From a virus (lineage: Duplodnaviria; Caudoviricetes): DNA of 64,000 bases. The stretch is taken from positions 202,421 to 266,420 of the IMG/VR virus record IMGVR_UViG_3300021254_000020; one strand, 5' to 3'. The notes beneath the pieces were generated by a model. It saw only the letters and a list, made by a program, of their open reading frames with translations, was not told the origin of the DNA and searched no databases. This document shows positions 46,991-62,837 of the stretch, piece by piece. The translations under genes were made by a program, and so were the position numbers. Numbering within the stretch: the stretch's first letter is position 1; each line of letters begins with the position of its first letter.

Positions 46991-47204
46991 ATACTCAGTC
47001 TATTTTTCTATTACTAAGCTTTTACAGATTATTATACATTACTATTGGTAGACTGAGAGACAGATCCTGACATGATGAAACTCATAGCAGGAATGAGGTA
47101 GGAACTAAACAGTGAAATATCAATCTTTTTTACTATACTATATAATTGACAGTTTCAAGTTTGTTCAAAAAATAAAAATGGGCCCGAGAGCCCATTTTTA
47201 TTCC

Positions 47205-47906
47205 TCACCATCCCTCCCAGCCTAAAGTTTTCATGTCTATACTAGACAATCCATATTTATGTTTGTATTCTACCTCGCATCTTCTAGAACAGAAATGTAC
47301 CTTTCTATCATTCCGTTCAACTACTTTATCACTATCTATGTATTTCCCATTAAGCTTTCTTCTCTTAGCATGAAGAATATGAAGCTTCCCACAGTTAGAA
47401 CACCATCCAGTAGTAGTAGAATATGGACTCAACTCCACATGAGCATGGATACCATCAGGTCCGAATATAATCATATATGGACACAATCTGGCCAACTGAA
47501 TCAGTAACCCTATTTCTGGATTTATATTAACCTGATTCTCTGCCCATATTTTGTAATCCTTTTCAGATAGAACAACTAATCTCTCGTACCCGTCTGGTCC
47601 AACAAATAAAGGTATCTCGTTTGCCAATGGATCTCTATTGAACGCTCTTCTAAACGCTCTAATAACATCGTCATTTTTATAACTGTACTCATCATCCATT
47701 TTTACAGAGAGGTAGGAGTCTCTAGGACAATCGTTTAATATCCTATAGTTTTCATCTTGAACCATAGGTTCTGCTATACATCCTATAGCTCTAGTATAAG
47801 GGTCTAATATATATTGACCATCAAAATTTATGCACTCTCTCATTACGTCAAGAGAGTACTTCTCTTTAAGATATCTTACTGGAACTCTGGTTACTATTTG
47901 CATCAT
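47205..47906 (-). CDS. Zn-finger (TRASH/MYM-like) protein
   Basis: CSNCGK...HFCSRRC; shares IHAHV with 47909. Confidence 0.7.
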   Translation of the reverse strand: MMQIVTRVPVRYLKEKYSLDVMRECINFDGQYILDPYTRAIGCIAEPMVQDENYRILNDCPRDSYLSVKMDDEYSYKNDDVIRAFRRAFNRDPLANEIPLFVGPDGYERLVVLSEKDYKIWAENQVNINPEIGLLIQLARLCPYMIIFGPDGIHAHVELSPYSTTTGWCSNCGKLHILHAKRRKLNGKYIDSDKVVERNDRKVHFCSRRCEVEYKHKYGLSSIDMKTLGWEGW

Positions 47907-47908
47907 TA

Positions 47909-48388
47909 TTATCTTCTCCTTATTCTACGTTCAAACTCTTCTTTGCATATATGATTACAGAAATGAAGATTTCCTAATCTATATACGTAATATAATCCTG
48001 ATCCTACAATTATGGGAGTATTACATATAGGACAGTTTACTGTTTTCTTCTCATCTATGGTTATTACATGAGCATGGATATTATCATCATTGAATACAAT
48101 ATCGAATGGAGTTGTCCTATAAAACTCCGTAATATCAATGGTATAATCGAATAGTACATACAACTTGTTTATTTGATATACGTCGTGTACTGATAATATA
48201 GCTAGTCTATTCTCGACTCCATTCACAATCAATATAGGAACTTCCCCGTTTTCTACAATGGGAGGATATCCAACTAATCTAGTATATTTAGAAACAAGAG
48301 CGTTTAGGCTTACTAGTTTCATATCGTTTGATAAATCTGTACTAGGATTAGTGATAATAATAGGATCTCCCCGATTTTCTACAATCAT
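47909..48388 (-). CDS. Zn-finger (TRASH/MYM-like) protein, paralog of 47205
   Basis: IHAHV...CPICNT...HFCNHIC; early motif at 48489-48497. Confidence 0.7.
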   Translation of the reverse strand: MIVENRGDPIIITNPSTDLSNDMKLVSLNALVSKYTRLVGYPPIVENGEVPILIVNGVENRLAILSVHDVYQINKLYVLFDYTIDITEFYRTTPFDIVFNDDNIHAHVITIDEKKTVNCPICNTPIIVGSGLYYVYRLGNLHFCNHICKEEFERRIRRR

Positions 48389-48520
48389 TAATCTTCATCT
48401 CCTGATTAAAAAAGTTTATTGATTTGATATAGCTTTAAGATGATGGACTACTCCTAAATGGAGTAGTCCTATTCACCCTATTCATTATTATAGTATATAT
48501 TCATTTTTGATATTGTCTAA

Positions 48521-48534
48521 GACAGTCCTATAAT
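48521..48534 (+). promoter_or_regulatory. late-type promoter motif GACA-N6-TAAT
   Basis: GACAgtcctaTAAT upstream of 48562 and the repeat array. Confidence 0.65.
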
Positions 48535-48561
48535 TATTATAGGGTATAAGGAGGAATTAGA

Positions 48562-49416
48562 ATGAAATCTATCAATCTTATATGGGTACCAAATATAAAG
48601 GAGATCACTAGTGATAATATTCCTATATATAGAGGTAATGGAGATCACATAGTAAAGATTATAGAGAAGATAAAAGAGAATTGTCAAAAAGATGAATTAG
48701 ATATACCTCTCTATATGGATGAGTATTCTAAAGAGAATAATCGTGTATCTCTTCTTCTTACAATATCAGATTATCTGAATGAAGAAGATAATGATGCTGA
48801 GGTGACTCAATACTTTGTTCTTCCTTATGGTCAGATTACCAAGATAAAAGACTTTGATAAGTTATCTAAATCTGTACAAACACTATGTGATAACTATTTG
48901 GAATCACTTACTAAGGATATTGATTCTACTAAGTCGATACTTTCTAAGGATGAGGCTAAGCTTAGTACATTAGACCCCAATCCTGATATTGATCTAGATA
49001 AGAAGCTTTGCTTACTTACAGAGATTGGATTCTGCTATGCTGCTATACAATCATATATGAATGATCATGAAGAAGAGATCCAGGATAGTTTTAATGATGC
49101 TATTAAAGAGTCTAGAGAAGAGGCTATTGAGGAAGAAGAAATTAAAACTGAGCTAGATATGATCAACTCTTCTATTAAGAGTATTCTAAAGGATAAAAAG
49201 GAATTTGAAAATGAAGAGTTTGTTCGTTGTATTTATAATCAACACGAAATCTCTCAGATTGATATGATAGAAGAACTCTCTTCTCATTACGTTCCTGAAT
49301 ATATGCCTAAGATTAAGAATATCAATGATACTCTAAATGATGAATATGAGATAGAAACTACTCATCTTATTATCACCAGAGATATTGGTGGTGGATTACG
49401 GTTAAAACGAAAGTGA
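48562..49416 (+). CDS. acidic hypothetical protein
   Basis: 284 aa, AGGAGG RBS; its stop codon overlaps the first array motif. Confidence 0.8.
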   Translation: MKSINLIWVPNIKEITSDNIPIYRGNGDHIVKIIEKIKENCQKDELDIPLYMDEYSKENNRVSLLLTISDYLNEEDNDAEVTQYFVLPYGQITKIKDFDKLSKSVQTLCDNYLESLTKDIDSTKSILSKDEAKLSTLDPNPDIDLDKKLCLLTEIGFCYAAIQSYMNDHEEEIQDSFNDAIKESREEAIEEEEIKTELDMINSSIKSILKDKKEFENEEFVRCIYNQHEISQIDMIEELSSHYVPEYMPKIKNINDTLNDEYEIETTHLIITRDIGGGLRLKRK

Positions 49417-50280
49417 TAATCACTATTAGCTATTAACCAATATAGCGGATAAAGTGGACTGTTCAGATTTATATCTATAAAAAATACAATGGACTAAAGG
49501 ACTGAAATTCTATATCAAAGGACAAATGTAACTATCAAAAAGTAGTTCAATGAAAAAGTGGAATGAAACTGCCAAGGAGTATACCAATACATTTTGTCTA
49601 ATGCAGAATAATTAAACGAATCCAATTTAGTGAGTGAATGCATTATTATAGGTTTTATCCAATTATGCATATTAATGAAAATGATGCTTTAGAAACCAAT
49701 TACAAGATGAAATGAACTACCACCATATATGATCAATGCGAGAACAGAGTGAGCTTAAGCCTATTAAACCAATAGTGCGTTGAAAAACGGATTATATTTT
49801 GTAATATCAATAATTCGATATAATGGACTGATATTCTATACTATCAATGAGTCGATAAAATGAATTATAATGAATAATTATCAATAGGAGCAAAAATGTA
49901 ATAAAAAAGTATATGGTCAATAATATAGTTTATTGGACTAATGCTGCAAAACCAATAAGCATGAAAATGATTATTTATTTTTTACCACATAGCAATATCC
50001 CAATTAGTGAGAAAAGTGAACTAATGTAATTGAACAAAATTGAAGGAGAGAAATGTAATAAAATCCTACAAACCAATATAACCATGCAATGAAATGCAAA
50101 TTAGTATAACCAATGATGAAAGTGATTGAATGGAATATAATAGAATTCAATAAAAAGGATAACTGGATTAGTATATTTATTTACAATACATGACCAAACT
50201 GAACTGAATATAATGAAATCAATAGACACACTCAATGAAATAGAATTATGTAAGACCAATATATAAAATAACTGAATATT
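49408..50280 (+). ncRNA. TIGR-like dual-spacer guide-RNA array (~22 units of ~37 nt)
   Basis: YCAAT-type anchors at 49437, 49474, 49509, 49547, 49584, 49622, 49659, 49696, 49733, 49769, 49807, 49844, 49881, 49917, 49952, 50000, 50036, 50073, 50110, 50147, 50183, 50219, 50256. Each is followed by ~9 variable nt, an nAATGRAHT motif and another ~9 variable nt. No credible ORF. Confidence 0.75.
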
Positions 50281-50294
50281 AGGAGGTAATCGAT

Positions 50295-50936
50295 TTGTTT
50301 GACAAATCTTCAAAATACTGGTTCTGGAAATTTCGTAAACGTATTAGAGATAGAGAAAAAGTAGATCCTAACTTTAAATCTCCGTTAATTAAAGAACCAG
50401 ATGGGCCTAAAGCCATATGTCCGAAATGTGGACGTATTTTCGCTACTAGAGAGATACATGGTCAAAGAACTAAATTCTGCTCCAAAGAATGCTATTACCA
50501 ATACCTACGTGACCTCTCTTCTAATAATCCATTAGAGAGACAAGCTAATGGTAGGAATAAACTACATCCAGACAGAATACGTATGCAGAAGTTATTAGGA
50601 AGACTCTTAAATCAAGATGAGATGGTATATCGCATTGGAGATATGCCGAATGATATACGAGTCATGACTAGACAAGATATCGGTAAGCTAACTAATAATA
50701 AGAACAATCGGTTTAAACTTGTAGAAGATGGAAACTATATGGCTCATGTAGTAGATAATGAAGCTAGTAAGATGAAACGAATCTGTCCTTGTTGTGGATG
50801 TGAGTTTACTAAGAAAAGTCCTACCCAAGTTTTCTGTTCTAAAAGTTGTGCTTCTCATGTTAAGGTACATAAGAAGAAGGAAGATGTAGTTCAGCTCAAG
50901 CAAGTAGCTTACTATGTTGATAGAGATAAACGATAG
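50295..50936 (+). CDS. Zn-finger protein with degenerate HNH-like domain
   Basis: Two CxxC...FCSxxC fingers flank HPDRIRMQKLLGRLLNQDEMVYRIGD, which aligns by eye with HNH HRxxMExxLGRxLxxxEVVHHIDG but lacks the His residues; TTG start with AGGAGG at 50281. Confidence 0.7.
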   Translation: MFDKSSKYWFWKFRKRIRDREKVDPNFKSPLIKEPDGPKAICPKCGRIFATREIHGQRTKFCSKECYYQYLRDLSSNNPLERQANGRNKLHPDRIRMQKLLGRLLNQDEMVYRIGDMPNDIRVMTRQDIGKLTNNKNNRFKLVEDGNYMAHVVDNEASKMKRICPCCGCEFTKKSPTQVFCSKSCASHVKVHKKKEDVVQLKQVAYYVDRDKR

Positions 50937-50954
50937 GATAGTTATATACTATAG

Positions 50955-51078
50955 AGTTGAGAAACAAGGAAGTTTCTTAAGACCTCTCGACGTAGTCATA
51001 TCCCTTGCTAAACCCTTGACTACGCAGCATAACTATAAAAAAGATAGGGCTTCTTCCTCCCTATCTTTTTTATTTTTT
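50955..51078 (+). ncRNA. candidate small structured RNA
   Basis: Early motif TATACTATA at 50945-50953, stems GAGAAAC/GTTTCTT and CGTAGTCA/TGACTACG, terminator AAAGATAGGG/CCCTATCTTT plus T-run; no ORF. Confidence 0.45.
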
Positions 51079-51241
51079 ATCATATAAATAACTAGATGAT
51101 AACAAGTAATAGTCCCACTTCACTATTATTTGTTCAATCATTGGTCTATTTCATTTATATTGGGTAGGCTATTATCTAGCCTACCCCTCTCTTTTTGACA
51201 TCTTAGTACTAAATAAATATAGTATAAAAGGAGGAATAGAA

Positions 51242-51871
51242 ATGAGCTGGAAAGTTAACTTAAAAGAAGTATACCAGATGGCTAGAGATGCCTACTGGCC
51301 ACTCTGGAATCTCGCCAAACAATATGGTAGGGACGTTAAGATTTATCTGCATTGGTCGAGTGGTCACTATACTACTGTATTTGATGATTATCACATTAAT
51401 ATCACTGGTGATGGTACATTGTACTGTACTGGTGATTTTGATGAAATTAAAAATGGGACATGGAGGCGTAATAGCGGTGCTATAAATATCTCTTTGTGCT
51501 GTGCTTATCGTGGTACTAGCAATGATCTAGGACCAGAACCACCTACTACCATTCAGATCGATCAAATGGCTAGAGTAGTCGCTGTTCTCTGTGATGCTTT
51601 GGATCTTACTATCGATATGAAACGAGTAATGACTCATGGTGAGGCTGCTGATAATATGGACGATTATACAGGAGCGTATCCGGACTCTGAAGTTTACGGA
51701 CCTGTCTACGGTGGTTGTGAACGATGGGACTTGCAGTATCTTGGTACAAATGAGTCTCCTAAATTCTTGAAGAATTATGATGATCCTCGTACTGGTGGTA
51801 ATGTATTACGAGGGAAAGCAAATTGGTTCCGTAACTATTGGAAGGAGCACCCGGAAGAAAGACCATACTAA
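51242..51871 (+). CDS. endolysin, N-acetylmuramoyl-L-alanine amidase-like
   Basis: IYLHWS..DYHINI..WRRNSGAINISLC..MTHGE amidase_2-type motifs; GACA-N6-TA motif at 51197-51208. Confidence 0.75.
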   Translation: MSWKVNLKEVYQMARDAYWPLWNLAKQYGRDVKIYLHWSSGHYTTVFDDYHINITGDGTLYCTGDFDEIKNGTWRRNSGAINISLCCAYRGTSNDLGPEPPTTIQIDQMARVVAVLCDALDLTIDMKRVMTHGEAADNMDDYTGAYPDSEVYGPVYGGCERWDLQYLGTNESPKFLKNYDDPRTGGNVLRGKANWFRNYWKEHPEERPY

Positions 51872-51933
51872 TAGTCATTAACTACTAGACAATGAGGTAG
51901 GTGCAGAGCCTACCTCATTGATTTAAATAGGAG

Positions 51934-52173
51934 ATGATTTGTATGCTAAGTATCTTTATGGACAACTTTGCTCTTTTACTATTAGATCTGTTTAATATAA
52001 ATCTAATAATAGGTTTAATAGGGCTAGTTATATCTCTTTTAGCAAATCTAGTAACTAAAGGAAAAAATAGTTTACTTAGATATTCTTTTGAATTTTTTAT
52101 AGCATATATAATTGCATTTGGTATAATGAGGATATTTCTAAATGCGATAGTATATGCATATAATTTAATATAG
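51934..52173 (+). CDS. small multi-TM protein, holin candidate
   Basis: Two hydrophobic segments, directly after the endolysin. Confidence 0.5.
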   Translation: MICMLSIFMDNFALLLLDLFNINLIIGLIGLVISLLANLVTKGKNSLLRYSFEFFIAYIIAFGIMRIFLNAIVYAYNLI

Positions 52174-52184
52174 GATGTGAATAC

Positions 52185-52454
52185 GTGGTGAGGATTTTTC
52201 TTTATACATTGATGGTATTGATATCACTTTGTTTAGGTTTTATTACTGAGTTATGTCTTAGTGATGCTGTTATGGGTCCAATTGCATTACGATATATCAA
52301 TATAATGATTAATGGAATAGTAGTGCTATGCTTACTTGGCATGATGCTTCTAATGTCTTATAATATCTATTATAAAGATAGATTAGATTATATGATTCTA
52401 ACCATAATAGTATTCTTTTCATATATAGGATTTGGGTTCTATATCAATAGATGA
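52185..52454 (+). CDS. small multi-TM protein, holin candidate
   Basis: Three hydrophobic segments in the lysis context; bidirectional hairpin at 52459-52484. Confidence 0.5.
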   Translation: MVRIFLYTLMVLISLCLGFITELCLSDAVMGPIALRYINIMINGIVVLCLLGMMLLMSYNIYYKDRLDYMILTIIVFFSYIGFGFYINR

Positions 52455-52490
52455 AAAAGAGGTAGACCATCATGGTCTACCTCCTCTATA

Positions 52491-55400
52491 TTATTTTTTA
52501 TCTTCGTCTTCTATACCATCCATGAGGATATCTTGTATGGGACGCCACTTTATCCCTAGCTCAGTCTGACAGGACCTGGCCAATTCGATCAGCCCCTTAT
52601 TAATCAGACCATTAGTCATACAACTAGACACCATACGACCAAAGACACCTGTAGAAGTAAGGAATGCACTGACGTACTCATTTGGGCGATACTCAGAGGT
52701 GGCTTCTTCCCCTTTAGGGATAAGTGTAGATACTACACCTTTCAGACCAGATAGGTATACTATCTTATCTCCTGATGCTAGCTTATCCACAGTCTTCAAA
52801 TAAAATTCTATGCGACAGCCGTCGAGATTTTTGAGCTTGCCCTCTTGAGGAAGTTTATAAGATGGTTCGAGTTCATACTCTTTATCTATCTTATAATCTC
52901 TCATTACCTTTTTGAGTTTATTAACCTTAGACTCATATTTCTTACAGATATGCTGTAAGGTATCACTCAATTTATTCATCTCTACTGTACGGTATACTTT
53001 GATATCTTGTACAATACCACTTACTTTAGCATGAACTTTCTTACGTCCAATATCAGATAATATTTCATTACCTTTAGTAAGACTCTTAAGAATAGCTGCT
53101 GCATCTTCTTCTTCAGCAGTATCAGAGAAGATAATGAGAGGTTCACCCTCTTGTACTTCTTGTCCTACTTCTACCATATGGAAAACGTTAGCATAAGATG
53201 CTAATGATACATCTTTTTGTACTACCAACTCAAAAGCCAATGCTTCAGAAATAGTATGATCCACTACACAAGAGTCTTCGAAGCCCATTGCTGTATTAAG
53301 TATACCTACTTTAGCAAGAGTACCGATATTATAACTAATATCGTTAGGATCTTTTCCATTATTTCCTACTGATGGTGAATAGGATGATTTGTTGTAGGCG
53401 ACGATATCGTTGTATTTGATCTTACTACCTTTTTTAATGCCAACATTAGGATCAAGCTTAGTAGTAATATAGAAGCCGCCGTCACTATTCTTTTGAATAG
53501 TCTCACGAAGATCAATATAATCACACTCCTTAGTATCATCATCTTGTAATACTATGTATTGATCCGTGACTTCTTTAACAGTTCCTCTCTTTCCTTTAAA
53601 CTTATAAGAGAATTTATTAGAGGTAAGATATGGCAAAGCCTGATCAGCACCAGTAGTAATAAGATTCGGCATACTCTTTTTGATCATCATTTGATGTTGT
53701 ACTGTCTGAGTGAAACCCATTGCTGTACGCATTGGGTCATCTCGATTTACTGCAAGAGGGGTCATAGCCTCCATGATAGAGAATGTAGATAGATTATCTA
53801 GATCCTTATTCTTAGAAGGAGTAATGAATCCACGCTTATTACGTACACCAGCATCTATTGTAGTCTGACGATTGATACCTACAGTACCAGCGAAACCTGT
53901 CGATAGAGATAATACACCAAGCATAGACTCATCATATGTTCTCTTTTCCATACTGAAGGCTCGTTCAGAGTTCATACCAGATAAACCCTTGAATGTTACC
54001 TTAGCTGCAGATTCTGCTTCTAGTAATGGAGATAGAGTAGATAGGTCTGAAGAAGTCTGGTCATGAGTCAGGATACTATCTATAACTGCTGACTTCTTGC
54101 AAGTGAAGGATACACTACCCTTGTTACGTTTAACACCATTGCGATAAGCACCATACTCTTTAGCCAATACACTATATAGATGGGCAACAATAACTTCATT
54201 TACACGAAGTCTATTACCAGTGATATCTGAATGACGGTTAAACTTAGTGTCTGTTAGCAAGCTACTAGCATATAGCAGAGCATCAATATACTCATGAGGA
54301 ATATGCAGTATCTTACAGATCTCTACAGTAATAGGATCCATCATTAGATCTGCAAAGTTATCCAGACCATCAGCTTTTATCCTACCACCATAGTCATCTA
54401 ATACTCCTAACCACATATCTTTGCTATTGATCTCACCAATACTATATTCAGTGGTATCAAATTGCATCATGCCATTCATGAGCATATTATCAGCATCAGA
54501 TCTAGGATAATAGATCATATAACCATCATTAAACTTAATATAGTTTTGACCCTTTGCTGGTCTCTTTTCAGAGAATTCGTATTTGATACCAACCTTACTC
54601 AGTACTTTCTGTAATCCAATAGTATATGCAGCTACTACAATAACAGGAATCGTCATATTTAGTATGGACGCTTCTGAGAACATTAGCCTATTAGCTACAG
54701 CTGAAGCAGCATATAATTCCTTGAACCTATCTGACTTCTCTCCAAGAAGTTCTTTGATATATTCATCTGCTGGCATATCAGCAGGGATAGGAATCCTCTT
54801 ACCATCCTTTACATAGATAGCTAGATATTTCTTAGCAAGATCTTCTTCCTTGAGTTTCTGATCTTCTTTAGGAAGACCAGTTCTATCAATAGGAATCTTA
54901 GATAGATTATCCATATTGAAAGAAATATAGCTATGATCCTTAAAGGAAATGGTACTAAATAGAGATGCCAAATCAATGAAGGATACTGGCAAGACGTAGT
55001 TGTTAGATACCTTACTATTGTCACCAGGGATTACTTTGAAATCATTACCATCCCACTTAGATAATACCTTCATTATCTTATTAACTACTGGAGTGGATTT
55101 ACCAAACCCAGAAGGAGATTTCCGTCTAATGAAGATTTTATTGTAGTTAGATACTATCTGTACAGTATCTCTATCAGTCTTTTCTATAGGAAGAAGCATC
55201 AACTGACCAATGAGTACTTTCTCATTACCACGGAGTTTCATAAAGCGACTACCAATCATACGAGGGATATCTACTTTAACAGTAGATCTCTTACCATTCT
55301 CTGCATCCTCATATTGTACAGTCCATGTATCTACATAATCTTCACTAGTAGATGTATTCTCTACGTCAATGGAGATAATATTCATAGGATGTGTAGTAGT

Positions 55401-60308: not shown

Positions 60309-62579
60309 ATGAAATTAATTAACCATGTTGAGCCAATCATGCAGCTCTTGAACTCTCCTCATGTAGGTCAGTTCTTAGAGTTCGAAGAAGGAGGTAATAT
60401 CTCTAAGAGTGATATTGAACACTTCGTATTGGTTCATCTCTCCCATCCTGGAGAACTTGATAATCTCCTTGATGTGAAAAAGAAGGCTAAGAAGAAGGCA
60501 GTTGTCGAAGAGGAAGAAGATGTGTCTGAAGAAGATGTGGTAAACATGTCTGAAGCGGAGACTCTTCAGTTGATTCGTCGTATCCGTAAAATCAACTGCC
60601 CGTCAATCAATGTGCTTAAAGACAATGGTTGGTTCCTTTGTCCGATCTATGCTGGTGTAACTGAACTGCGTCCTTTGATTTGCAAGAAGCTCCCTGCAAA
60701 GAAAGGATACAAACTGATTATCTTAGATGCATCTATTGGTAATATTGAGGGTCTCTTCACTAAAGACAATCTTAAGGAATGGGAACTCAATTCCATGCGT
60801 AAGCTGGATATGCACTTTGATAATAGTGGTCTTGGCTTCAAGTCCATGAGTGTGTTCATTCATAAGAAGGATGATATCTTCACCAAACGTATGCGTAATG
60901 CAGTAAATCGTTTAGAAACCACTCAGCGTACTCGTATTAAGTTGGGTAATATACTGGTAGATGAGGTTATCAGTATCGTTGGTCAGGAAGCTTATATTAA
61001 CAATAAGCAGAATCTGGCTAAGAGCAACAAGTCCAAGTCTTCTGTTACTGAATACGATACCAATGACGTAAAGATCATCAAATATATTGAGAAGGCATAT
61101 AAGCGTATCAATAAGACAGCTGAGAAGATGGACGTGAAGACTCCTATTCGTCGTCATAAATCTTTTGACGCTGTTATAGAACAGATTATAGCCGAAGAGA
61201 AACTTGAGCATCAGGATCGTGCAAACGCTTGGCTCAAGTCTATCAATGATGGAGTTGCTAATTTAGAGGCTTGGAAGAATGCTTCCAATGGTAATACTGG
61301 TATGCCTACCTTAGAGTATGCTATGAGCGTTGTCCGCAATGAGATTGATGAATCTCAGAAAGGTGATGAACCGATCGATATCCAGAAGCTTGCTCAGGAA
61401 TGGATCGATAATGTCAAAGTTGGTATTAATAAGCTCAAGGACTGGAAGGAATCCTATAAGCAGAATCTCATTGATGAAGGAGAAGATGAGGAAACTATCA
61501 GTGTGCCGGATATGCCGACAATGGAAGATGCTCTAGCTGAAACTAAGCAGCTTGGCGTTCATGACTACATTGAATCGTTCCTCACCTATGTAAACGTACA
61601 GAACTACATGCAGTATGTGAAATCTGAAAAGGATGCTGAACTGGTAGTAAATGAATTGGTTCATGAATCCTATCTCTGGGAATATATTGAAGGTATTAAG
61701 GGCTGTGGTGAGATCACTGCAGCATATATCCTTTCTGATATTGATTTCCGCAGCACTGTTCATGCATCTTCAGTAGTTAGATATCTCGGTCTTGATAATA
61801 TCACTACTGTTCCTGATCGTGAAGGCAAACCTGTTAGTGAAGAGCAGTTGCCGTTGATTATTCGTTTCCTGTTCCATAACTATAATCTCATCCGTACTAG
61901 AGAAGATAATTCTGATCAGGATGATATCGGTGTTCTGCCTCCGATTAGTGAAGATACATTCTATCGTTATGCTTCTGAAATGGTCGAGGATTGGAGCGAG
62001 TATAAGGCTATCGAAAAGGTTATTAAGACTAAGGGAGTCAATAAGATGGATCCCCATAAGATCTTAGAACTGGATACCAACTTTGCTGAACTCGTACAGA
62101 AAGTATGGGAGCATTGTGATATTATTGAATATCGCAATCAGCGTGGTGAGATGATTCCTACCATTAAGAAGCATGCTCGTTCCAAGAAAGATAGTGTTGT
62201 TACTACGTTCTTGGATAAGAACGGTAATATCTCCACTAAGAAGAGCCTTGGCTATAATACCAAACTCAAGGCTAGAATCATTGAGATCATGTTTGGTTCT
62301 ATGATGAAGGCTAAGAATGAGTTCTATTATGGTGAACTCTATCTCGGATTCAGAGAACGTAAAGTTAATGAATATCTTGCTCAAGGCAAAGATCCTGAGA
62401 TTCATAAGAATCATATCCATATGCAGGCTCGTCGTTATGCAGTGCAGATATTCATTGAGAATCTGTGGATGTGGGTTCGTCAGAAGAAGGGCTGGCCAAC
62501 GAATGGTGGTACCTATTATGAGGCTAAACTCAAAGGTACTCATGGTCATGGCTTAGCTATGAATAGCCCACTTAATTAA
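60309..62579 (+). CDS. IS110/Nop-domain RNA-binding protein, TasA-like (no evident nuclease)
   Basis: Coiled coil RMRNAVNRLETTQRTRIKLGNIL; Transposase_20/Nop-like block LWEYIEGIKGCGEITAAYILSDID..SSVVRYLGLD; GYNTKLK; HIHMQARRYAVQIFIENLW. No DEDD RuvC motif and no GLxP..SG serine loop. Confidence 0.75.
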   Translation: MKLINHVEPIMQLLNSPHVGQFLEFEEGGNISKSDIEHFVLVHLSHPGELDNLLDVKKKAKKKAVVEEEEDVSEEDVVNMSEAETLQLIRRIRKINCPSINVLKDNGWFLCPIYAGVTELRPLICKKLPAKKGYKLIILDASIGNIEGLFTKDNLKEWELNSMRKLDMHFDNSGLGFKSMSVFIHKKDDIFTKRMRNAVNRLETTQRTRIKLGNILVDEVISIVGQEAYINNKQNLAKSNKSKSSVTEYDTNDVKIIKYIEKAYKRINKTAEKMDVKTPIRRHKSFDAVIEQIIAEEKLEHQDRANAWLKSINDGVANLEAWKNASNGNTGMPTLEYAMSVVRNEIDESQKGDEPIDIQKLAQEWIDNVKVGINKLKDWKESYKQNLIDEGEDEETISVPDMPTMEDALAETKQLGVHDYIESFLTYVNVQNYMQYVKSEKDAELVVNELVHESYLWEYIEGIKGCGEITAAYILSDIDFRSTVHASSVVRYLGLDNITTVPDREGKPVSEEQLPLIIRFLFHNYNLIRTREDNSDQDDIGVLPPISEDTFYRYASEMVEDWSEYKAIEKVIKTKGVNKMDPHKILELDTNFAELVQKVWEHCDIIEYRNQRGEMIPTIKKHARSKKDSVVTTFLDKNGNISTKKSLGYNTKLKARIIEIMFGSMMKAKNEFYYGELYLGFRERKVNEYLAQGKDPEIHKNHIHMQARRYAVQIFIENLWMWVRQKKGWPTNGGTYYEAKLKGTHGHGLAMNSPLN

Positions 62580-62604: not shown

Positions 62605-62643
62605 GTGAGGAGAGTCGTAATGACTCTCCTCATATTTTTTTTT
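62605..62643 (+). terminator. Rho-independent terminator
   Basis: TGAGGAGAGTC/GACTCTCCTCA stem followed by a T-run. Confidence 0.75.
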
Positions 62644-62661
62644 GATTTACTTTTAAATTAA

Positions 62662-62777
62662 ACATACCTAGGTGAAGTAAACGAATAATTTATGGACGTT
62701 CTTAATCAAAGGAGCATTTATCTTCAAACACGGACCCCATGAGGCAGGAAACTGCACAGTGTTTTACCTAGGTATGT
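62662..62777. ncRNA. candidate structured RNA
   Basis: ACATACCTAGGT...ACCTAGGTATGT closing stem around ~90 nt containing a GCAG-GAAA-CTGC hairpin; lies between two terminators. Confidence 0.35.
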
Positions 62778-62837
62778 ACTATATTGTTATATTTGTAAAA
62801 AATTAAGGGGAGTGCCCATAAGAGCACTCCCCTATTA

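Follow-up and report, generated by a model that had tools for sequence, protein, structure and literature searches.

What is encoded in a gap of 878 nucleotides (nt) that holds no open reading frame (ORF) and lies between two plus-strand genes of a phage of the Caudoviricetes (Duplodnaviria; IMG/VR record IMGVR_UViG_3300021254_000020)? The window analyzed here is a stretch of 64,000 nt, positions 202,421 to 266,420 of that record, which is 266,420 bp long and complete according to CheckV; positions are those of the window unless marked as genome positions. The gap (49417-50294), with a GC content of 27% compared to 37% for the window, is occupied by a tandem array on the plus strand, referred to as array D (49438-50294; genome 251858-252714), with approximately 23 units of 35-39 nt apart from one of 48 nt. 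The genome also encodes a Tas (Nop-domain) protein of 756 amino acids (aa), and array D is probably Tas-associated. The interpretation that we favor, with guarded confidence, is that it represents the guide-RNA array of a divergent TIGR-Tas system in which each unit carries two guides.

The array and its repeating unit

Array D is real, periodic far beyond chance and non-coding. CAAT occurs 24 times in its 857 nt compared to 5.8 times in shuffled sequences, and 16 of these copies have a partner 35-38 nt downstream, where 0.16 were expected and the maximum in 500 shuffles was 2. Autocorrelation, which the initial annotation had proposed as a check, peaks at lag 37 (z = 6.1-6.2 over dinucleotide shuffles), with no stronger lag-37 signal elsewhere in the 64-kb window. 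The pattern CAAT-N9-11-ANTGRA-N13-19-YCAAT has 10 matches, all on the plus strand and inside array D, against 0.13 expected. The count of 23 units at a spacing of about 35-38 nt, with a mode of 37 nt and a single 48-nt unit, was reproduced when the units were recounted, and the example string given with it was located at 49696-49770. The limits first assigned (49408-50280) do enclose an array, but its start lies at 49438, as 49408-49416 is the end of the upstream ORF, and its last unit extends past 50280 into the ribosome-binding site of the next gene (approximately 50280-50294).

A protein-coding reading of array D is ruled out by 27-29 stop codons in each plus-strand frame. Direct repeats of at least 23 nt, as expected of CRISPR, are absent, the conserved cores being only 5-6 nt long, and Tandem Repeats Finder made no call at the array. 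Both observations agree with the earlier view that it is neither a CRISPR nor a simple tandem repeat, and the variable segments, described as almost all unique, are indeed unique within array D. No Rfam family matched array D at E values up to 1, and a blastn search of phage GenBank with positions 47000-53000 of the window gave no match.

The unit was defined from 42 clean units of the four arrays found in this genome. It begins with YCAAT (similar to box C), followed by 10 variable nt (segment 1), A-N-T-G-N-A (similar to box D) and, in array D, 13-17 variable nt with an A-rich tail before the next unit (segment 2). Over the 42 units the sole conserved positions, written as RNA, are Y-C-A-A-U and, 10 nt further on, A-N-U-G-N-A, with a weak Y-U preference directly past the second motif. 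The distance from box C to the UG is 16 in 35 of the 42, while that from the UG to the next unit ranges from 17 to 22. The formula given at first, with one CAAT-type and one TGA-type motif per unit, was correct in its motifs and in their asymmetry, with the conserved cores now narrowed to Y-C-A-A-T and A-N-T-G-N-A. It also proposed two variable segments of about 9 nt; the first is of fixed length (10 nt), while the second varies in length and lacks conserved flanks. No second box pair per unit appears in the 42-unit logo, and lags 18-19 are not significant (z ~1.6).

In array D, 20 of the 23 units have CAAT anchors in phase and three are degenerate. Two of these, starting at 49475 and 49510 near the 5' end (49475-49547, plus strand), carry TCTAT in place of YCAAT, and in the third (50038-50073, plus strand) ATTGA replaces YCAAT with the box D AATGTA retained. 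The only irregular unit, of 48 nt, lies at 49953-50000 (plus strand). The unit at 49697-49733 (plus strand) is duplicated in another array at genome position 41595, 210 kb away, where the variable segments agree at 19 of 22 positions, and segment 2 at 12 of its first 13 nt.

The genome-wide scan revealed four arrays with one shared grammar: array A (genome 41415-41670, plus strand, 7 units), which holds the duplicate just mentioned, array B (genome 46715-46942, minus strand, 6 units), array C (genome 85709-86182, minus strand, 14 units, with two-unit duplication blocks) and array D, the largest and the nearest to tas. Arrays A, B and C lie 166-211 kb from array D. A gene of the same direction immediately precedes each of the four, and arrays A and B are closed, in the sense from box C to box D, by terminators with a hairpin and a T run. 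For array D the preceding gene is a 284-aa ORF (48562-49416, plus strand), and since its stop codon lies only 21 nt before the first unit, gene and array are likely co-transcribed. On the transcribed strand a CCA-like box is followed by a variable segment and a UG box, which matches the polarity of published tigRNAs (PMC12045711). Folding of the array D RNA gave a minimum free energy of -121.7 compared to -133.5 +/- 6.9 in shuffles (z = +1.72). The RNA folds worse than its shuffles, which fits single-stranded guides and argues against the class of TIGR systems with stem-loop arrays.

An oversized Tas protein encoded 10 kb away

The only tas gene of the genome (60309-62579, plus strand) starts 10.0 kb from array D and approximately 176-221 kb from the other arrays. 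Its product is a genuine Tas by profile and by fold, and the earlier call of a Nop-domain protein at 60309 therefore stands. Profiles and folds were needed for this identification because plain PDB searches and Pfam Nop gave nothing: the 756-aa ORF has only a sub-threshold match to Pfam Transposase_20, a type of hit shared by 14 of 25 members of its Tas family, and Pfam Nop does not hit it directly. With a profile of 25 full-length homologues, SpTasH was the only meaningful PDB match (E 0.0035). An exhaustive phmmer search collected 442 relatives, mostly of 280-500 aa, that match residues 420-500 and 620-748, and a profile of the C-terminal domain with 57 relatives matched TaTasR (9MTY) at 2e-31, SpTasH at 1.7e-23 and IS621 at 0.048. 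The top Foldseek hits of an AlphaFold2 model of the protein (pLDDT 80) were Tas chains (probability 1.00). In VIA-align the model reached Z 15.8 with TasR (220 residues, root-mean-square deviation 2.7) and Z 15.0-15.5 with TasH, followed by IS110 recombinases at approximately 10.8 and Nop56/58 at approximately 8.5, a ranking that would be expected for a Tas protein.

The two weaker groups of fold matches belong to RNA-guided systems that resemble this one in part. IS110 bridge-RNA recombinases (IS621, ISCro4) share a related RNA-binding domain; they differ in their DEDD RuvC domain, which was not detected in the 756-aa protein, and in using a single bridge RNA with two loops instead of a long tandem array. 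Box C/D small RNAs and small nucleolar RNAs (snoRNAs), which act with Nop5 or Nop56/58, have a Nop-domain protein in common with the present system. In eukaryotic snoRNAs, one well-kept and one degenerate box pair per RNA are usual. The kink-turn consensus of these RNAs (RUGAUGA / CUGA) is not found in array D, and the fold match to Nop56/58 is much weaker than that to Tas (Z ~15.5). Genes for L7Ae or fibrillarin were not encountered either, though no search was directed at them.

Large additions are found in three parts of the protein. Residues 1-192 (60309-60884) form an N-terminal domain that is modeled with confidence when folded alone (pLDDT 77); compared with 48,161 chains, it had no match above Z 2.8 and shows no recognizable fold. 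It contains the invariant residues H38, H43, D105, W108, C111 and P112 (motifs IEHFV.VH and DNGWFICP). No RuvC or HNH domain was detected in the 756-aa protein, nor any Pfam nuclease hit. Judging from the model, the N-terminal domain may be a new effector or DNA-binding domain, and possibly a new nuclease of an unrecognized kind. Residues ~190-460 (60876-61688) constitute a helical coiled-coil region, greatly expanded to approximately 270 aa, whose long helices align with the Tas coiled coil in the model and which is predicted to serve as the dimerization domain preceding the Nop core. The Nop C-terminal domain (residues ~400-756; 61506-62576) carries an insertion of approximately 120 aa (~500-620) at the position of the TasR wedge.

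Close to its C-terminus, at residues 732-748 (NGGTYYEAKLKGTHGHG; 62502-62552), the protein has a Tyr/His motif, and the ending NGGTYYEAKLxGxHxHG is invariant in 25 family members. The profile aligns the Tyr with Y289 of SpTasH, and the His follows as at H296. In SpTasH these two residues form the dyad that processes the tigRNA precursor (PMC13421893), and the loop that bears them marks self-processing dual-repeat systems (preprint 10.64898/2026.09.09.750476, section 10; PMC13421893). With this motif the 756-aa protein has the processing dyad of the dual-repeat clades, which is predicted to be catalytic here too. All of these regions lie on the plus strand, and the gene is followed by a terminator-like hairpin with a T run (62608-62645, plus strand), as read from the sequence. 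Between this terminator and that of the convergent gene lies an element of approximately 115 nt (62664-62778, plus strand) closed by a 12-nt stem (ACATACCTAGGT...ACCTAGGTATGT), which could be a separate small RNA adjoining tas.

Related arrays, Tas relatives and segment turnover

The link between this array grammar and this branch of Tas proteins is seen in other genomes. On a 161-kb contig (locus L056), a 485-aa Tas relative (P0029; E 4.5e-19) with the same LNGGTY.E.KL...H ending is preceded directly, on the same strand, by a gene-free stretch of 2.8 kb. At L056:7750-9900 (plus strand) this stretch holds approximately 55 units of 37 nt with the layout AACCU-N10-AAUGUAAU-N10-AYYA, and a terminator located shortly upstream of the tas promoter region ends the array. 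Both variable segments are fixed at 10 nt and are accompanied by the semi-conserved AYYA. This is the clearest tas-adjacent example of the array class. The only relative in IMG/VR is a 290-kb phage with terminal repeats (G001; IMGVR_UViG_3300045988_100587), whose Tas is 31% identical. At 151092-153000 (plus strand), approximately 23 kb from the tas relative, it has at least 40 units of WYCATT-N10-ATAGAT-N15-20, in which segment 2 is AT-rich, of low complexity (GC 0.17 compared to 0.28 for segment 1) and 14 to 20 nt long. Three genomes of this Tas branch, the present one included, thus share the order of box, 10 nt, box and longer variable stretch with differing box sequences, a co-occurrence of three genomes and not a statistical association. 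As a positive control, the same methods recognized a textbook array after the gene of a 301-aa relative (P0083, locus L037), with units of 36 nt that each contain two repeats ending in CCA. The gene map of a further relative (P0030) shows a gap of approximately 1 kb upstream of the tas relative. A scan of IMG/VR with a strict two-unit pattern returned 29 loci, all of them isolated chance matches, and zero arrays.

These co-occurrences bear on whether the array acts at all as RNA. Phased CAAT-N10-ANTG sites in DNA, such as iterons, operators or centromere-like sites bound by a phage DNA-binding protein, would also consist of short conserved motifs at fixed spacing, of the kind that this genome has in four copies; the array RNA is itself putative, and the upstream 284-aa protein has a match to a ParA helix-turn-helix domain (E 0.0099). 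This match is below threshold, however (16.5 bits compared to a cut-off of 32.3), and the protein has no matches in PHROG. The motifs do not form an inverted repeat, and ATTG, the mirror of CAAT, is present in 7% of units. In addition, a period of 37 bp corresponds to 3.5 helical turns, and the four arrays follow the direction of local transcription, in which two of them end at terminators. Finally, the same layout adjoins tas in L056 and accompanies Tas relatives in three genomes despite differing box sequences, so that a role as DNA sites appears improbable. An operator built from inverted repeats, in particular, is ruled out since box D (A-A/C-T-G) is not the mirror of CAAT.

Further information on what is maintained in these arrays comes from two related phages, in which arrays of approximately 45 units each (L061:4860-6560 and L062:4860-6680) occupy the position syntenic to array D. 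The 284-aa gene precedes these orthologous arrays as well, with 72-73% identity. Both arrays keep the grammar YCAAT-N10-ANTGNA, and the variable segments are mostly different. In a more distant relative (L001), the syntenic site holds only a hairpin and no array. The persistence of the boxes while the intervening sequence changes argues for selection on the boxes. This is difficult to reconcile with a transcribed array unrelated to Tas, such as a decoy or sponge transcript, or with a functionless repeat field in decay. Such an origin would be in line with the distance to tas, with several degenerate units and with the failure to find targets in the phage's own genome or in G001. It is, however, very unlikely, as the boxes were kept across approximately 45 units in each of two related phages with the rest changed, the grammar co-occurs with the Tas clade in three genomes and adjoins tas in L056, and the box order CCA-guide-UG is that of the published tigRNA polarity (PMC12045711).

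The comparison of the three arrays also indicates how the segments turn over. Nine unit pairs agree in segment 1 at 8 or more of its 10 positions, where a column-preserving null gives 2.3. For the first 10 nt of segment 2 the count is likewise 9 pairs, compared to 3.9 (p ~0.017), while the last 10 nt show no sharing above the null. When the orthologous arrays are aligned directly, the conserved patches cross unit borders. No units share both segment 1 and the 5' part of segment 2, which hints at an exchange of half-units at the conserved boxes. The two segments might then be exchanged independently of each other, presumably by recombination at these boxes.

One guide or two in a probable divergent TIGR-Tas system

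The initial annotation had proposed a TIGR-like array. Its anatomy fits this proposal in the unit of approximately 37 nt, the two motifs and the two variable segments, but the second spacer of about 9 nt is putative, and no targets were found in the phage's own genome or in G001. Dual-repeat TIGR systems, which include TaTIGR-TasR (PDB 9MTY), SpTIGR-TasH of Salicola phage CGphi29 and FpTIGR-TasA (Faure et al. 2025, PMC12045711), likewise consist of tandem units of approximately 36-37 nt in which two motifs alternate with two variable segments; the first of these segments has a CCA-like box C on its 5' side and a UG-containing box D on its 3' side. Unstructured array RNA, the lack of adaptation genes and a phage-encoded Nop-domain Tas with a coiled coil and a C-terminal Tyr/His loop are common to both as well. 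The main departure lies in the boxes: in the published dual-repeat family the two repeats, edge and loop, co-vary and each runs from UG to CCA (PMC12045711), which gives two box pairs, while the units here contain a single box C and a single box D. The conserved cores are also shorter (5-6 nt compared to 8-12 nt), segment 1 measures 10 nt, in a gap of 14 nt from CCA to UG, instead of the 9 nt of a published spacer, and the two spacers of approximately 9 nt are replaced, in the case of segment 2, by a stretch of variable length without defined borders. While tas adjoins the array in dual-repeat systems, it lies 10-221 kb from the four arrays here. Finally, dual-repeat Tas proteins measure approximately 250-350 aa, and their class is portrayed as one with a compact Nop core and guides of a uniform 36 nt (preprint 10.64898/2026.09.09.750476), whereas the present Tas reaches 756 aa through its N-terminal domain, the helical expansion of approximately 270 aa and the wedge insertion of approximately 120 aa.

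Some of these departures recall the stem-loop TIGR-Tas systems PlTasA, PateTasR and CsTasR (PMC12045711; preprints 10.64898/2026.09.09.750476 and 10.64898/2026.08.11.744272). In these, variable non-repeat sequence extends from box D to the next box C, 10-nt spacers occur, Tas proteins have large insertions (which there co-vary with RNA features), and nuclease-free or dead effectors act as repressors. Their palindromic stems, which take the place of edge repeats, have no counterpart in array D, however, and all stem-loop clades lack the Tyr/His loop that the 756-aa Tas keeps. Based on these comparisons, array D agrees with the dual-repeat class at the level of the protein, lacks its equivalent box pairs and its adjacency to tas, and lacks the stems of the stem-loop class.

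In the two-guide model, array D would be transcribed on the plus strand as read-through from the upstream 284-aa gene, and the precursor RNA would stay unstructured. The 756-aa Tas, encoded 10 kb downstream, would bind this precursor in trans via Y-C-A-A-U and A-N-U-G-N-A, and its C-terminal Tyr/His loop would cut the A-rich tail before each box C to release RNAs of approximately 37 nt. Each of these would present a 10-nt guide flanked by the two boxes and a second guide of perhaps 10-12 nt, anchored by the loop on its 5' side only. The complex would most likely bind DNA of the host or of a rival element and repress transcription, since no RuvC or HNH domain was detected and nuclease-free Tas proteins act as repressors (preprint 10.64898/2026.09.09.750476, section 12 and Discussion), with TasA and dead TasR as demonstrated cases. 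A second guide is preferred because both segments are fixed in L056, because the 5' part of segment 2 is shared between related phages and because the unit duplicated between arrays A and D keeps its segment 2.

Alternatively, Tas could use one guide per unit, in which segment 1 would be the guide and the following 13-20 nt from box D to the next box C a variable linker. The repeat would then be UGNA-linker-YCAAU, in which box D and box C form a complete module and the loop is extended, and a Tas dimer would engage either two neighboring units (~74 nt) or two cut half-mers of 37 nt. Half-mer box C/D RNAs do exist. With one box C and one box D per unit, all modules would be complete and identical, which would meet the need of a symmetric dimer for equivalent sites (PMC12045711), and loops exceeding 12 nt have been described for TIGR arrays (preprint 10.64898/2026.09.09.750476, Extended Data Fig. 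1 legend). Segment 1 is indeed fixed (35 of 42 units) while segment 2 drifts between 13-17 nt here and 14-20 nt in G001, where it is AT-rich and of low complexity. Orthologous units keep segment 1 (the 9 pairs described above) with an unrelated segment 2, the two segments being inherited independently, and array C contains two-unit duplication blocks. Against this stand the fixed 10-nt second segment and semi-conserved AYYA of L056 and the 5' part of segment 2, which is shared between phages above the null and kept in the intragenomic duplicate. Furthermore, segment 2 equals segment 1 in GC and complexity in this genome, unit counts are not consistently even (7, 6, 14 and 23), and the lag-74 signal is no more than a harmonic. 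A single guide per unit is therefore conceivable, though rather doubtful.

The two-guide model has its own difficulties. Published Tas dimers read two equivalent box pairs (PMC12045711), while the units here offer one box C and one box D with a weak half-period signal. Segment 2 varies from 13 to 17 nt in length and resembles a linker in G001. The unit pairs that share segment 1 and those that share segment 2 never overlap between the related phages, and conservation of the two segments in different units would be odd if both must match one site. The tas gene is 10 kb from array D and up to 221 kb from the other arrays, and four loci with Tas relatives (L001, L003, L034 and L035) show no periodicity within 10 kb of tas in a lag scan with windows of 150-250 nt, by which short arrays could be missed. 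The array RNAs are, moreover, putative. Lastly, although the spacers of dual-repeat systems pair with opposite strands of one DNA target, no targets above controls were found in the phage's own genome or in G001, either with segment 1 (at most one mismatch) combined with an 8-mer from anywhere in segment 2 no more than 45 nt away, or with adjacent 10+10 matches in four orientations, using segment 1 with segment 2 and consecutive pairs of segment 1. The spacer search against the phage's own genome that the initial annotation had suggested thus gave counts equal to controls, and the targets are probably host or competitor DNA.

As a side observation from these searches, ten-mers of segment 2 from the four arrays occur 91-102 times in the phage's own genome (arrays masked) compared to ~60 +/- 11 in mononucleotide shuffles, an excess over a crude control that may be an effect of word composition. 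Ten-mers of segment 1 occur 70 times compared to 71 expected.

More tentatively, these features could define a third TIGR class with one box pair per unit, scattered arrays, an oversized trans-acting Tas of the self-processing type and independent exchange of the two segments. If true, such exchange would create new guide combinations without adaptation machinery. TIGR-Tas was first described in 2025 and is under development as a source of compact genome tools that are free of a protospacer-adjacent motif, and to our knowledge its natural targets and the origin of its spacers have not been established. No mention of TIGR-Tas together with jumbo phages was found in the literature searched. The TIGR family would reach beyond the two published array grammars, and a Tas of the self-processing type could carry very large additions, in a class so far described as uniform. 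Arrays of this kind, asymmetric and 10-220 kb from the gene, would escape motif-based finders that search the vicinity of tas for two box pairs. The four arrays of a complete genome together with the orthologous arrays of approximately 45 units in two phages provide a comparative set for guide turnover.

Among the genes that neighbor array D, a 213-aa ORF (50295-50936, plus strand), whose ribosome-binding site overlaps the last unit, resembles HNH endonucleases (PHROG families at E 6e-9 and 2e-8) and has CxxC pairs. It could encode a homing endonuclease or a protein that works with the nuclease-free Tas. In L061 and L062 the corresponding place after the arrays is taken by ORFs of 190 and 211 aa, a likeness known by position only. 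Plain sequence searches with three neighboring proteins against the PDB returned nothing. The 209-aa ORF further downstream (51242-51871, plus strand), which encodes an Amidase_2 domain and matches a PHROG endolysin (E 7e-31), is an ordinary phage lysis gene.

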